DNA of 6,265 nt from a virus (taxonomy: Duplodnaviria > Heunggongvirae > Uroviricota > Caudoviricetes), in the IMG/VR virus record IMGVR_UViG_2737471834_000004. One strand, 5' to 3'. The translations under genes were made by a program, and so were the position numbers. The notes below the pieces were generated by a model that saw only the letters and a list, made by a program, of their open reading frames with translations, was not told the DNA's origin and did not search any database. How positions within the stretch are numbered: position 1 is the stretch's first letter; each line of letters begins with the position of its first letter. Shown piece by piece: positions 2,867 through 6,265 of this stretch.

Positions 2867-3023
2867 TAATAATCCACCCTATCGTCACTTTTTAAGCAGT
2901 TATATACTGATGAAACTGAACATTTCCATCTAATAACCCGAAAATTCGTTCATCTCCACATGTATGTAATGACAGGCTCCCCACGTAATGCCCTATAAAG
3001 TCTTTTTGGTAATAATACGCGCG

Positions 3024-3042
3024 GTGCTTTCCCCGCCTCGCC
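3024..3042 (-). other. cos: cos site (19-nt P2/P4-type cohesive end)
   Basis: Plus strand gtgctttccccgcctcgcc is the reverse complement of GGCGAGGCGGGGAAAGCAC, which I recall as the P2/P4 cohesive-end sequence. It lies downstream of psu, as in P4. Confidence 0.75.
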
Positions 3043-3066
3043 CGCCCGCTTTGCAGGGCGGTTTTA
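3042..3066 (+). terminator. GC hairpin plus T-tract abutting cos
   Basis: Stem ccgccc (3042-3047) / gggcgg (3056-3061), 8-nt loop, then TTTT (3062-3065) on the plus strand. Could terminate plus-strand transcription entering the cos/psu region or be a packaging-related structure. Confidence 0.3.
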
Positions 3067-3142
3067 ATGCAGTTGCACAGTCACGCTCAGGCCGTGCCGG
3101 GCGTGGCCTGGTCTGCAGGAAATGAGGCGGGAAAACGCATGC

Positions 3143-3176
3143 AAAGCCATGCACCTTATCGATGCATGGCTTTTTT
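3143..3176. terminator. Bidirectional intrinsic terminator between psu and cos
   Basis: Perfect 8-bp stem gccatgca (3146-3153) / tgcatggc (3163-3170), flanked by AAA upstream and TTTTTT (3171-3176) downstream on the plus strand. On the psu (minus) transcript the hairpin is followed by UUUGCAUGCGUUUU. Sits about 38 nt past the psu stop. Confidence 0.5.
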
Positions 3177-3207
3177 CAGTAAAAACGGGCGGATTTTTCG
3201 GGGAGTT

Positions 3208-3780
3208 TTACACAGACTGACGTGATGCCAGTTCTGCACTTTTACGCGAAAAAATCATGTTCTGCGCAGGGGTGAATTTTTCACGGCTGTCATCCACCGA
3301 AGCCGCGTCAGGCCTGAATCCGATGGTCGTTAAAATGTTGCTATCCTGTGCGGAATAATTAATTTTTTCCCCCTTCGCAAGCCAGGACAGAAGGGCTTCA
3401 CGCAGGGCATCTGTGGCACGCTGTATGGCACAGTTTCGGGCAATGGCCGTCAGCTCACTGTAGCCCATCAGCTCCGGTGCCAGTGCGGCCGCCAGTGCTG
3501 TGCCGTGCTGCTGCATAAAATCATTCAGCCGCTCGCGGATGCTGATGTGCTGAACGGCTTCATGCGAACGAACATAACGACCGGCGGCCTGATTCACCTG
3601 CCATTTTCTGACTTCGATAATATTGCGTAATTCGTCCAGGCGACTGACGTTTCTGCCTTCCCCGGACAGAAGCCGCAGATATTCCTGTTCGGCTGCCGCC
3701 AGTTCATTTTTGCGCTGAAGCCATGCCGCTTTGTTATTCTGGCAGACCTCAAAAGCCTGCTGTAATGACATTGTGGTCAC
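3208..3780 (-). CDS. psu: Psu (polarity suppression protein; Rho antagonist and capsid decoration protein)
   Basis: 190-aa ORF, the size I recall for P4 Psu, in the expected position after delta and before cos. The codon at 3780-3778 is GTG with AGGAGA about 7 nt upstream; an alternative ATG lies at 3771-3769. Identity asserted from memory, not searched. Confidence 0.85.
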   Translation of the reverse strand: MTTMSLQQAFEVCQNNKAAWLQRKNELAAAEQEYLRLLSGEGRNVSRLDELRNIIEVRKWQVNQAAGRYVRSHEAVQHISIRERLNDFMQQHGTALAAALAPELMGYSELTAIARNCAIQRATDALREALLSWLAKGEKINYSAQDSNILTTIGFRPDAASVDDSREKFTPAQNMIFSRKSAELASRQSV

Positions 3781-3794
3781 ACCCCGTCTCCTGA

Positions 3795-4040
3795 TTAATG
3801 GTTGAATGGTGAGCTGTAACAGCCTTTAACTTTTCGGACAACAGCCGGTGCTGTGCTTACCGGTGCTGGTTTTTCCTCCGTGACCGGAGAACGAATCACG
3901 GCACAAATTGACTCATGCGTTTTAAATGTCGCCGAACAGTAAATATTCTGGCACTGCAGATAACTTTCTTTGACATTGTCACTCACATACCGGCTGGTGC
4001 GGGTATGCGCTGAATGACGACAGAAAGGGCAGCGCATCAT
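3795..4040 (-). CDS. delta: Delta/Ogr-family zinc-finger late-gene activator, single-domain form
   Basis: 81 aa with C-x2-C...C-x4-C (CPFC ... CQNIYC) typical of the Ogr/Delta family. ATG at 4040-4038 overlaps the sid stop as ATGA (4037-4040). Located between sid and psu as in P4. Confidence 0.85.
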   Translation of the reverse strand: MMRCPFCRHSAHTRTSRYVSDNVKESYLQCQNIYCSATFKTHESICAVIRSPVTEEKPAPVSTAPAVVRKVKGCYSSPFNH

Positions 4041-4771
4041 GACAGCAGTCCTCTGGCCTTAAGCTCTGCTCCCTGCTGGTCTATTTTGTCCTGCCACACC
4101 TTGCGCTGTGCCGGTGTGCCTGCCACCTCATAATCCATGTGCGGGAGTGTTGCCGCTGACAGCCCGGTCAGCCGGAGAACCGGCTCGCCGCTGAGGCTGA
4201 TTTGTATCTGTTTAATTTTCTGTTCCAGCGATGATTTCACCTGCTGCATGACAGCCTTTTCCGGTGCGACGTAGCCCTGATGGCCGGTGGTGTTGGCGAG
4301 CGGATTTTCCTGTACCAGGATGCTCAGATGCATTGCCCGGACAAGCACCTCACAGGTTTCATTCAGGGCGTGTTCCAGCTCATGCTCTGCATACAGACTC
4401 AGAAGGTGATGATGTGCCTTCCGGTAGGCGGTGGCCGTGCTGTCACACGCCCCTTTCAGGCGTTCACGTTCGAAATTCAGCACCACGGCCAGATTGTCAT
4501 ATTCCTGTACCAGCTCCCGGCGTGCCACGCGCTCAATGTGGCGCTGTTTCAGCTCGTCGCTCAGGACACCACCGGCTGCACGAAAGGCCGTGCGCCAGTC
4601 GTCAGCGTCGTTTCCGTCGGCCTGCGTCAGCGCATTTTTTTCCTGCTCTGCCCGTTCAATGGCCGTGACGGTCTCATCCATCAGGCGGGCGTTCTCAAGA
4701 TGGGCGGCTCTGGACTTTTCCAGTTGTGCCAGTGCGGGTTGCAGATATTCAGGGATAGTGTGGTCAGACAT
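4037..4771 (-). CDS. sid: Sid (capsid size determination, external scaffold)
   Basis: Start placed at the ATG 4771-4769 (MSDHTIPEYLQ...), giving 244 aa, the size I recall for P4 Sid, with GAGGAG 8 nt upstream. The ORF-track start at 4837 is rejected because it lies upstream of the predicted Psid start site. First gene of the sid-delta-psu operon. Confidence 0.85.
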   Translation of the reverse strand: MSDHTIPEYLQPALAQLEKSRAAHLENARLMDETVTAIERAEQEKNALTQADGNDADDWRTAFRAAGGVLSDELKQRHIERVARRELVQEYDNLAVVLNFERERLKGACDSTATAYRKAHHHLLSLYAEHELEHALNETCEVLVRAMHLSILVQENPLANTTGHQGYVAPEKAVMQQVKSSLEQKIKQIQISLSGEPVLRLTGLSAATLPHMDYEVAGTPAQRKVWQDKIDQQGAELKARGLLS

Positions 4772-4861
4772 TTTCCGGCTCCTCGTCACTTCAGGTTGAG
4801 AAAATTGTGACGTACACCGGACAACAACACGACGCATTGCAGATGTGCCAGCCCTGACACA
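4772..4861 (-). promoter_or_regulatory. Psid late promoter with Delta/Ogr box
   Basis: TGT-N12-ACA dyad (tgtgccagccctgacaca) at 4844-4861. Placing its centre near -55, as for P2/P4 late promoters, puts the start site near 4797, downstream of the ATG at 4837 and upstream of the sid ATG at 4771. Confidence 0.55.
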
Positions 4862-4915
4862 GGAGACTCATCCTCAGACCGGCAAGCCAGGAAAAGGTCG
4901 CAGGAAAAACCGGCT

Positions 4916-5090
4916 TACTGTTTGTTTTTTTATATTTTACTGTTCACCTCTGTTCACCATAAGAAAAAAGATAAGTAATACAGTAAGTTAAAGGGTGAAC
5001 AATCGCAGTAATGACTGTTCACCGTCTGTTCACCACTGTTCACCCGTTGATGGGCTTTTTGTGCTGTTTATTACTGTTTGTTTTTATTAA
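4916..5090. repeat. crr-like iteron cluster (alpha-protein binding type I repeats, TGTTCACC)
   Basis: Direct copies of cTGTTCACC at 4940-4948, 4950-4958, 5015-5023, 5026-5034, 5036-5044 (10-11 bp phasing) and an inverted copy GGTGAACA at 4994-5001. Flanked by two copies of tactgtttgttttt(t)at at 4916-4933 and 5072-5087. TGTTCACC is the octamer I recall for P4 ori/crr. Confidence 0.65.
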
Positions 5091-5148
5091 TTCGTCGGGA
5101 ATGAATAAGAAAAAACGATTTGTATTTCACTATAAAAATTACGAATTG

Positions 5149-5178
5149 CTTTAAGTGGCTTTAAATGACTTTAAGTGG
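5149..5178 (+). promoter_or_regulatory. Three tandem 10-bp repeats upstream of PLL; candidate operator
   Basis: ctttaagtgg (5149-5158), ctttaaatga (5159-5168), ctttaagtgg (5169-5178), exactly contiguous and in helical phase, about 30 bp upstream of the PLL Delta box. Confidence 0.4.
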
Positions 5179-5203
5179 AGATGAACAAAAAACACACAAG
5201 CAT

Positions 5204-5275
5204 TGTAAGGCTGCCGGAACAAATCCCCCCTGTTGCGTCTGCTGAAAATATTCACAAAATAAAACGCTACCCGAA
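5204..5275 (+). promoter_or_regulatory. PLL (Delta-activated late-left promoter) with Delta/Ogr box
   Basis: TGT-N12-ACA (tgtaaggctgccggaaca) at 5204-5221. Predicted start site near 5268, about 55 nt upstream of the vis ATG and about 395 nt upstream of the candidate PLE start site, matching the ~400 nt PLL-PLE spacing reported for P4. Confidence 0.5.
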
Positions 5276-5323
5276 GCCGGACGGACTTATCCGGTGCTGT
5301 ATGGACATTAACGAGGTAGCCCG

Positions 5324-5590
5324 ATGCAAGCTGTTTTTTCTTCCCCGTCTCCTGCCCCTGTGACGCCACTGATGCCGCTGCCGGACATCACACAGGAGCG
5401 TTTTTTACGTCTGCCGGAAGTGATGCACCTGTGCGGCCTGTCACGCTCGACCATCTATGAACTCATCCGTAAGGGGGAATTTCCGCCGCAGGTGAGTCTT
5501 GGCGGTAAAAATGTGGCCTGGCTGCACTCTGAAGTCACCGCATGGATGGCCGGCCGCATTGCCGGACGCAAACGGGGGTATGACGCATGA
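5324..5590 (+). CDS. vis: Vis / AlpA-family helix-turn-helix regulator
   Basis: 88 aa with AlpA-like HTH core ([29 protein letters not shown] ... [12 protein letters not shown]). GAGG 7 nt upstream of the ATG at 5324. First ORF downstream of the PLL candidate, as for P4 vis; stop TGA overlaps the next ORF start as ATGA (5587-5590). Confidence 0.75.
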
Positions 5591-6177
5591 TGATGCCCGC
5601 TCTGCAAAAACTCCCTTTTTCTGGCTTGCCTTTTTCCGGCATTTGCGGATATAGTTTTTCCGTTGCCGCAAAATCGGCAGCCGGGCGTGAGAACCCGTGT
5701 AACTCGAAGGCGACATATGACGCGCCATGCGTCTTTTTTTGTGTCGCAATCAACGCCACAGAGCGCCAGATTATGGTGTGGCGTGTGGTTTGCCGTGCAG
5801 GTATGATCCTGTTCGCAATCGCATGTTATGCCACTGAGTCAATGGTAGCTCAGGCGGGGCAGCCTCCGGGCTGGCCGGTATTCTTCGAGGCCGGTATTCT
5901 CACCCCCGTCTGGGCTATCGCCATCGAGCGTGAGAACTCCGGCGATAGCAGTTATTTGCTACTCGAAGGAGGCTGCCTTATGGCTACAACCCTTACCCCC
6001 TCACACCCTGAATTTGTCTTTGTGTTTGCGGCTGTCCGTCGCGCAGACCGTCATCCCCGTATCTGCATGCTTCGCACCGTCGCCGGTGATGAACGCAGCG
6101 CCCGCCGTTCCCTTGTCCGTGACTATGTGCTCTCCCTTGCTGCCCGTCTGCCGGTGGTGGAGGTGTCCCGTGCGTAA
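5587..6177 (+). CDS. eta: Eta-like ORF (long nested ORF of the left operon)
   Basis: 196-codon ORF beginning with three consecutive ATGs (MMM) and overlapping the vis stop. P4 eta is described as 197-199 aa with three possible starts, beginning upstream of PLE and containing kil in frame. The amino-acid composition is unusual, so protein-level function is uncertain. Confidence 0.5.
5626..5655 (+). promoter_or_regulatory. Candidate PLE (constitutive early-left promoter) inside eta
   Basis: -35 TTGCCT (5626-5631), 18-nt spacer, -10 TATAGT (5650-5655). Located inside eta and upstream of kil, consistent with P4. Confidence 0.45.
5980..6177 (+). CDS. kil: Kil-like small protein (65 aa), nested in-frame in eta
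   Basis: ATG at 5980 preceded by AAGGAGG (5966-5972) with 7-nt spacing. The 65-aa product matches the reported size of P4 Kil. Ends with a double stop TAATAA (6175-6180). Confidence 0.6.
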
Positions 6178-6265
6178 TAAAAAAGCCCCTCAGACCGTCT
6201 CAGCACGTCATGACGCCCGTGAACACCTCAGCATTGAGGCTTACCATGCGTATTTTCATGAAAGG

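Follow-up and report, generated by a model that had tools for sequence, protein, structure and literature searches.

A TGT-N12-ACA dyad lies upstream of vis in the stretch of viral DNA analysed here, which is 6,265 nt long and is referred to below as the window. The dyad, TGTAAGGCTGCCGGAACA, occupies positions 5204–5221 with its centre at 5212.5, and a pattern scan of the 6265-bp window returns this segment, tgtaaggctgccggaaca, as an exact match. The original prediction took it for a Delta/Ogr box of the late promoter PLL. The question raised by the locus is whether the dyad is such a box, and how it relates to the corresponding sites of phage P4, of the helper phage P2 and of other P4-like satellites.

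Control of PLL, the late leftward promoter of satellite phage P4, has been textbook P4 biology since the late 1980s. Work attributed to Deho et al. in 1988 and to Julien and Calendar in 1995 and 1996 is said to have placed P4 PLL about 400 nt upstream of PLE and to have found it Delta-dependent. The same work reportedly located Delta footprints centred at −55 at all six late promoters, and phiR73-type single-domain activators are said to work on PLL as well. The P4 GenBank records contain no annotated promoters. Activators of the Ogr type are zinc-finger proteins that bind inverted repeats centred around −55 of the P2 late promoters and activate transcription through contact with the α subunit of RNA polymerase (PMC3152322). 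The consensus of Ogr-dependent promoters is TGT-N12-ACA (PMC3931495). P4 Delta is a homologue of Ogr, and both proteins promote late genes of P2 and P4 (PMC8628076).

The window carries a large part of a P4-type prophage. Positions 3043–6247 are 96.3% identical to phage P4 (X51522 / NC_001609), and positions 4700–5800, which include the dyad, are 96.8% identical to P4 over 1101 bp without indels. The two sequences are collinear through the 5′ end of sid, the type 1 iterons, the type 2 repeats, the box, ORF88/vis, PLE and the cI region. [quoted passage not shown] The window contains psu, delta, sid, alpA/vis and an Ash-family ORF, arranged as in P4. A match to the 211 bp around the box is found in 1060 of the 5426 complete E. 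coli genomes, in every case on the chromosome, in line with the abundance of P4-like satellites in Enterobacterales. One of these genomes, NZ_CP043217, contains a copy of positions 5120–5330 that is 100% identical, together with int and alpha, both of which lie outside the window here. Its cargo between int and psu, a nuclease and a UvrD-type helicase, is unlike that of the window. The coordinates of the features are collected in Table 1.

Table 1. Genes, RNAs and regulatory sites of the P4-type element, in window coordinates.
Feature	Position	Strand	Remarks
psu	3208–3780	-	Pfam Psu, E = 1e-87
delta	3795–4040	-	81 aa, single-domain Ogr/Delta zinc finger; Pfam Ogr_Delta, E = 1.4e-18
sid	4037–4771	-	244 aa from ATG at 4771; stop codon 4037–4039
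Proximal Psid TGT-N12-ACA	4806–4823	.	Overlaps predicted −10 (CACAAT, minus strand, 4809–4804)
Distal Psid activator box	4844–4861	.	TGTGCCAGCCCTGACACA; about −55 from predicted sid start at ~4797
P4 ori type 1 iterons	4941–5044	.	TGTTCACC, five direct copies (4941, 4951, 5016, 5027, 5037) and one inverted (4994)
Three phased P2 Cox boxes	5146–5174	-	TTAAAGTCA, TTAAAGCCA, TTAAAGCAA; about −93 to −121 from PLL start
Weak PLL −35 region	5230–5236	+	CTGTTGC here, TTGTTGC in most relatives; kept in nearly all 50 aligned sequences
Predicted PLL −10	5255–5260	+	CAAAAT here; CATAAT or GAAAAT in other clades
Predicted PLL transcription start	5266–5268	+	Inferred from −10 position (~7 nt downstream)
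vis (P4 ORF88)	5324–5590	+	AlpA-family excisionase/regulator; Pfam Phage_AlpA, E = 7e-21
PLE, constitutive early promoter	5626–5655	+	TTGCCT-18-TATAGT; only sigma-70-like site in 4700–5800; identical in P4
PLE transcript start	5662–5739	+	Rfam isrK RF01394, 67 bits, model position 1 at 5662
CI immunity RNA	5838–5925	+	Rfam C4 antisense RNA, RF01695, 74.3 bits

The gene downstream of the box, vis, is collinear with P4 ORF88 and belongs to a PHROG family described as excisionase and transcriptional regulator. It would be the first gene of the PLL transcript. Further downstream, the a1/b1 targets of the C4/CI RNA overlap with the beginning of the PLE transcript, and RF03163 has a match at 5649–5701. 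A 196-aa ORF on the plus strand (5587–6177) has a Pfam Phage_ASH match and overlaps the Rfam isrK and C4/CI RNA matches. Thus, as in P4, the segment 5587–6177 encodes RNAs and also bears an ORF. RefSeq annotates the Phage_ASH ORF of a related E. coli element as an Icd-like cell division inhibitor.

At the other end of the element, positions 3018–3087 match the cos region of P2-like phages with 88–93% identity. Lying between psu and the cargo gene, this match marks the satellite's packaging site. To the left of cos, where P4 has other genes, the minus strand (118–2790) encodes as cargo an 890-aa TrlF-family AAA-like ATPase (NCBIfam NF045780, 572 bits). The protein shows weaker similarity to the anti-phage protein Ppl and occupies the variable cargo position.

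The presence of TGT-N12-ACA alone says little, since the pattern has just six fixed bases. The whole window contains five matches, against 1.5 expected, and at least five matches are found in 4 of 200 shuffles. Three of the five matches (starting at 4806, 4844 and 5204) fall within the 552-bp intergenic region that extends from the sid start at 4771 to the vis start at 5324. In 20,000 dinucleotide shuffles of this region, the mean number of matches is 0.27 and the probability of three or more is 0.0019. The chance that a match starts within ±2 nt of 5204 is 0.002, again by dinucleotide shuffling of the 552-bp region. On both the count within the 552 bp and the position, the dyad is real and beyond chance in its context.

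Two of the three intergenic matches belong to the sid promoter Psid. The dyad at 5204–5221 is therefore the third TGT-N12-ACA of the region and not the second, as had been proposed. The spacing of about 360 bp given for the pair holds when measured from the distal Psid box (5204 − 4844 = 360 bp). The proposed arrangement, a divergent pair of promoters bracketing the iterons, agrees with the order found in the window, namely the Psid boxes, the TGTTCACC iterons and the PLL box. About 20 divergent loci have a displayed sequence long enough to include the distal Psid box (TGTGCCA...GCCACA), and nearly all of them show an exact TGT-N12-ACA there.

The core promoter was located by aligning 50 distinct upstream regions. 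They comprise the window, P4, 11 copies from E. coli genomes, one metagenomic copy and about 36 loci from other genera that were retrieved through Vis. A single −10-like hexamer, (C/G)A(A/T)AAT, is kept in all 50 sequences, from E. coli as well as from other Enterobacterales. Relative to the start predicted from this invariant −10, the dyad is centred at −54.5 (range −53.5 to −55.5). An alternative −10, AAATAT at 5246–5251, would shift the dyad centre to near −46. The predicted PLL start lies 394–396 nt upstream of the PLE start at about 5662, and the predicted distance of about 395 nt is reproduced when the PLL start is taken as ~5267. Transcription of the plus strand into vis had been attributed to the orientation of the box. 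The direction stands, on account of the conserved −10 at 5255–5260, but the dyad itself has no orientation and cannot set it.

A scan of positions 4700–5800 for the sigma-70 consensus returned PLE only and no site at PLL. That PLL goes unscored as a sigma-70 promoter fits an activator-dependent promoter. A second activator site was also sought at PLL. Only candidates with one mismatch were present, near −19, −28 and −77 to −88, and none is convincing.

Between the −10 and vis lies a leader (5261–5323; GCTACCCGAAGCCGGACGGAC...CCGG..CTGTATGGAC) that is almost invariant across genera and more conserved than the activator box. It contains a CCGGA/TCCGG hairpin at 5277–5294. The leader could hold Vis operator sites or an RNA element.

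Within the P4 clade, both arms of the box are conserved. P4 has TGTAAGACAGCCTGAACA at the homologous place, with both arms retained and three of the 12 spacer bases changed. The TGT and ACA arms are invariant in 13 E. coli/P4 copies, and the only variable columns of these copies in 5202–5242 are the spacer positions 5210, 5212 and 5216. Other changes occur just upstream of the left arm, at 5199–5201. The flanks are highly conserved too, so the invariance of the arms is only weakly discriminating within this clade. IMG/VR was scanned with the conserved flanks as the pattern and the entire box masked as N, which yielded 34 contigs. Although the arms were masked, TGT is kept in 33 of the 34 and ACA in all of them. 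The spacer again varies at 5210, 5212 and 5216, and the allele of the window is the commonest (25/34). The one contig with a mutated left arm (TATAAGACTGCCGGAACA) is locus L070 (IMGVR_UViG_2740892487_000003, 7263–7311), which would make a natural test case for loss of PLL activation.

Outside the P4 clade the box takes a different form. Upstream of vis in 40 divergent loci, whose Vis proteins are 65–81% identical, the exact TGT-N12-ACA occurs once, inside iterons, and not at the homologous position. Across the alignment, 35 of the 50 distinct sequences, the distant clade included, have TGT at the offset from the −10 seen in the window. ACA is at the N12 offset in 12 sequences and one base further downstream in 19. 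Most of the distant loci read TCTGTTGTGTGGTGGGCCACTACAAAA, in which the right arm is displaced by one base (N13, or N11 from the next TGT). In loci L005–L044, from other genera, the segment 45–70 nt upstream of the −10 is mostly TGTTGTGTGG-N-CTACAAAA (TGT-N13-ACA or N11), as at ~1669–1690 of L025. A subgroup (L005, L006, L028, L030 and L034) has a different palindrome, GTCAATGTTT-N-AAACATGAC, at PLL. The view that the box is unconserved in distant relatives, which the lack of an exact N12 match would suggest, was dropped because the alignment displays the shifted N13/N11 dyad at the homologous place.

These shifted dyads, together with the inexact sites of P2 described below, show the strict TGT-N12-ACA to be a P4-clade form of a looser recognition rule. 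The box of the window fits this rule by its sequence as well as its position. The strict pattern is a reliable guide only within the P4 clade.

The candidate ligand encoded by the element itself is the 81-aa Delta, whose gene is part of the neighbouring sid operon and which contains the cysteine motif CX2C-X22-CX4C. Its sequence identity is 47% to P2 Ogr and 51% to the N-terminal domain of P4 Delta. Single-domain Deltas of 66–87 aa are present in nearly all other P4-like loci examined, and among these loci the tandem form is restricted to P4 (166 aa) and one metagenomic copy. Derivation of the window Delta from the tandem P4 Delta by deletion was considered and rejected, as the gene shows no relationship to that of P4 at the DNA level and the identity of the protein to the N-terminal domain reaches only 51%. 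Co-evolution of box type with Delta type was likewise rejected, because the window Delta is 78–80% identical to the Deltas of Citrobacter, Enterobacter and Scandinavium elements, which have N13 boxes. The independence of box type from Delta type is in line with the known cross-activation within the Ogr/Delta family. In the window, a single-domain Delta is thus paired with P4-type boxes.

A second set of sites lies upstream of the box. P2 Cox activates P4 PLL from upstream sites, and the Cox box consensus there is TTAAA(G/C)NC(A/C), with box starts 10–11 bases apart (PMC3936717). Three matches to this consensus are present on the minus strand of the window, at 5174–5166, 5164–5156 and 5154–5146. 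The P4 record lists them as "ori type 2 repeats" (three repeats of 10 nt, 5148–5177).

The segment that holds the Cox boxes (5136–5183, ~45 bp) is swapped for unrelated cassettes in 6 of the 12 E. coli loci fetched. The replacement cassettes, of which there are at least two versions, contain phased TTCCAG-type repeats; they are found in L048 (NZ_CP142590.1, ~417–464), L049, L050, L051, L053 and L054. From the 80–90% identity band, cassette replacement is inferred for 489 of the 1060 matching E. coli genomes. In the swapped loci, the type 1 iterons and the sequence from ~5187 to vis, box included, are unchanged. The PLL control region might accordingly be modular in design, with a constant box, core promoter and vis leader joined to an interchangeable ~45-bp helper-sensing cassette, although we regard this as a tentative idea that is rather unlikely to hold. 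If it were true, with the cassettes being Cox/Apl-type binding arrays of different helpers, the cassette would set which helper wakes the satellite.

The conserved and swapped segments bear on other ways of explaining the dyad. It might bind Vis, in autoregulation, a spreading P2 Cox filament or the α replication protein, and its match to TGT-N12-ACA would then be incidental. The surroundings of the box lend this some appeal. It falls within the stretch that is annotated as the P4 origin, the Cox boxes are just 30 bp away, and the gene for Vis follows a short distance downstream. Protection by Cox covers 70 bp or more and spreads beyond this at high concentration (PMC3936717). However, neither a Cox box nor the α iteron TGTTCACC is found within the box, the box stays unchanged in the roughly half of E. 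coli P4-clade copies whose Cox cassette is swapped, and it agrees in position and arms with the Ogr-type sites at Psid and in P2. Binding by one of these other regulators is therefore very unlikely. Still less probable is a box shared by two divergent promoters, one of which would send a leftward transcript into the origin for ori activation or as an antisense RNA. Such sharing has a precedent in P2, where the PO/PP site serves two starts, 55 and 56 nt to either side, and TAAAGT at 5173–5168, a −10-like hexamer on the minus strand, would predict a start near 5161, with the box centred about 51 nt upstream of it. That distance is several bases off, though, and TAAAGT, the only −10-like hexamer on that side, lies within the Cox cassette that is replaced in about half of the relatives. 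No gene precedes sid on that side, and sid has its own boxes and −10. We know of no report of a leftward transcript from the PLL box into ori in P4.

Least probable of all is a chance match without function, conserved merely because the region is young and nearly identical among P4-clade elements. The low information of six specified bases (1.5 matches expected per window), the P4-clade flanks that vary no more than the arms and the lack of the exact pattern in distant relatives would all be compatible with it. Yet the substitutions among P4-clade copies spare the arms, with the single IMG/VR exception in 34, and are found instead within the spacer and immediately before the left arm. In addition, TGT and ACA recur at the fixed or one-base-shifted offsets counted above, and a match at the 5204 offset has a chance of only ~0.002. 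This substitution pattern and the positional statistics contradict pure chance.

Identification of the dyad as a Delta/Ogr box of PLL is thus supported by the collinearity with P4, the geometry of the P2 sites and the published consensus. Positions 5204–5221 are very probably the counterpart of the upstream activator site of P4 PLL, here in a P4-type prophage. At this promoter, an Ogr/Delta zinc-finger activator would bind the TGT and ACA half-sites centred ~55 bp upstream of the start. The activator may be the 81-aa Delta of the element or the Ogr of a P2-like helper. Contact with the α subunit would recruit RNA polymerase to a core promoter whose −10 (CAAAAT, 5255–5260) is usable and whose −35 is poor. 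The transcript, starting from ~5267, is predicted to encode Vis and to read through the PLE/CI-RNA region into the replication operon. The phased Cox boxes (5146–5174) may serve as a second, helper-dependent input. PLL and Psid, 360 bp away on the opposite strand, would be two divergent late promoters flanking the replication origin. We infer the PLL start site, the binding, the activator dependence and the read-through from the sequence.

The box would accordingly belong to the late promoter that turns on vis and the replication genes in response to a P2-type helper or to the Delta of the satellite itself. With it, the regulatory map of the prophage is fixed and comprises Psid, ori, the Cox boxes, PLL, vis, PLE and the CI RNA.

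The PLL box can be compared with its neighbour in the same intergenic region. In P4 and in the window, Psid and PLL both have an exact TGT-N12-ACA about 55 nt upstream of the predicted start, a site for the same activator family. The two promoters differ in that Psid has a second dyad overlapping its −10. The distal Psid box also keeps its exact N12 spacing in nearly all of the distant loci displayed there, whereas the PLL box does so only in the P4 clade.

The late promoters of P2 (PO/PP, PV and PF; NC_001895) likewise depend on an Ogr-family zinc-finger activator that contacts the α subunit of RNA polymerase (PMC3152322; PMC3931495). Each has a partial dyad beginning with (T)TGT and centred at −55 to −58. 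Measured from the annotated starts, the centres of the annotated activator sites are at −55 (PO), −56 (PP), −55.5 (PV) and −58 (PF). The annotated sites in the P2 record (locus L057, NC_001895) span 3057–3087, 10239–10266 and 17555–17583. Unlike the PLL box, the P2 sites read TGT-N12-CCA (PO/PP and PF) or TGT-N11-ACA (PV), so an exact TGT-N12-ACA scan would miss all four P2 late promoters. The P2 promoters also differ in driving structural and lysis operons and in having no Cox boxes.

Other P4-like satellites, from Citrobacter, Enterobacter, Klebsiella, Kluyvera, Raoultella and others, have the same sid/intergenic/vis architecture as the window. They share the −10, the nearly invariant vis leader and a TGT at the same offset from the −10. 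In contrast, their right arm is shifted by one base, or replaced by the other palindrome in the subgroup, and their iterons are different.

The closest relative is P4 PLL itself (X51522, ~9133–9150). As in the window, it lies between the ori repeats and ORF88/vis, with 96.8% identity in the surrounding 1.1 kb, and has the same arms, the same −10, the same distance to PLE and Cox boxes upstream. The two boxes differ in three spacer bases (GGCTGCCGG vs GACAGCCTG) and two bases just upstream of the left arm. The elements around them differ in that P4 encodes a 166-aa tandem Delta in place of the 81-aa single-domain Delta and has no match to the TrlF-family ATPase cargo next to cos. The PLL activator box is already known from P4, and its identification here, in a P4 variant, is correct but ordinary.
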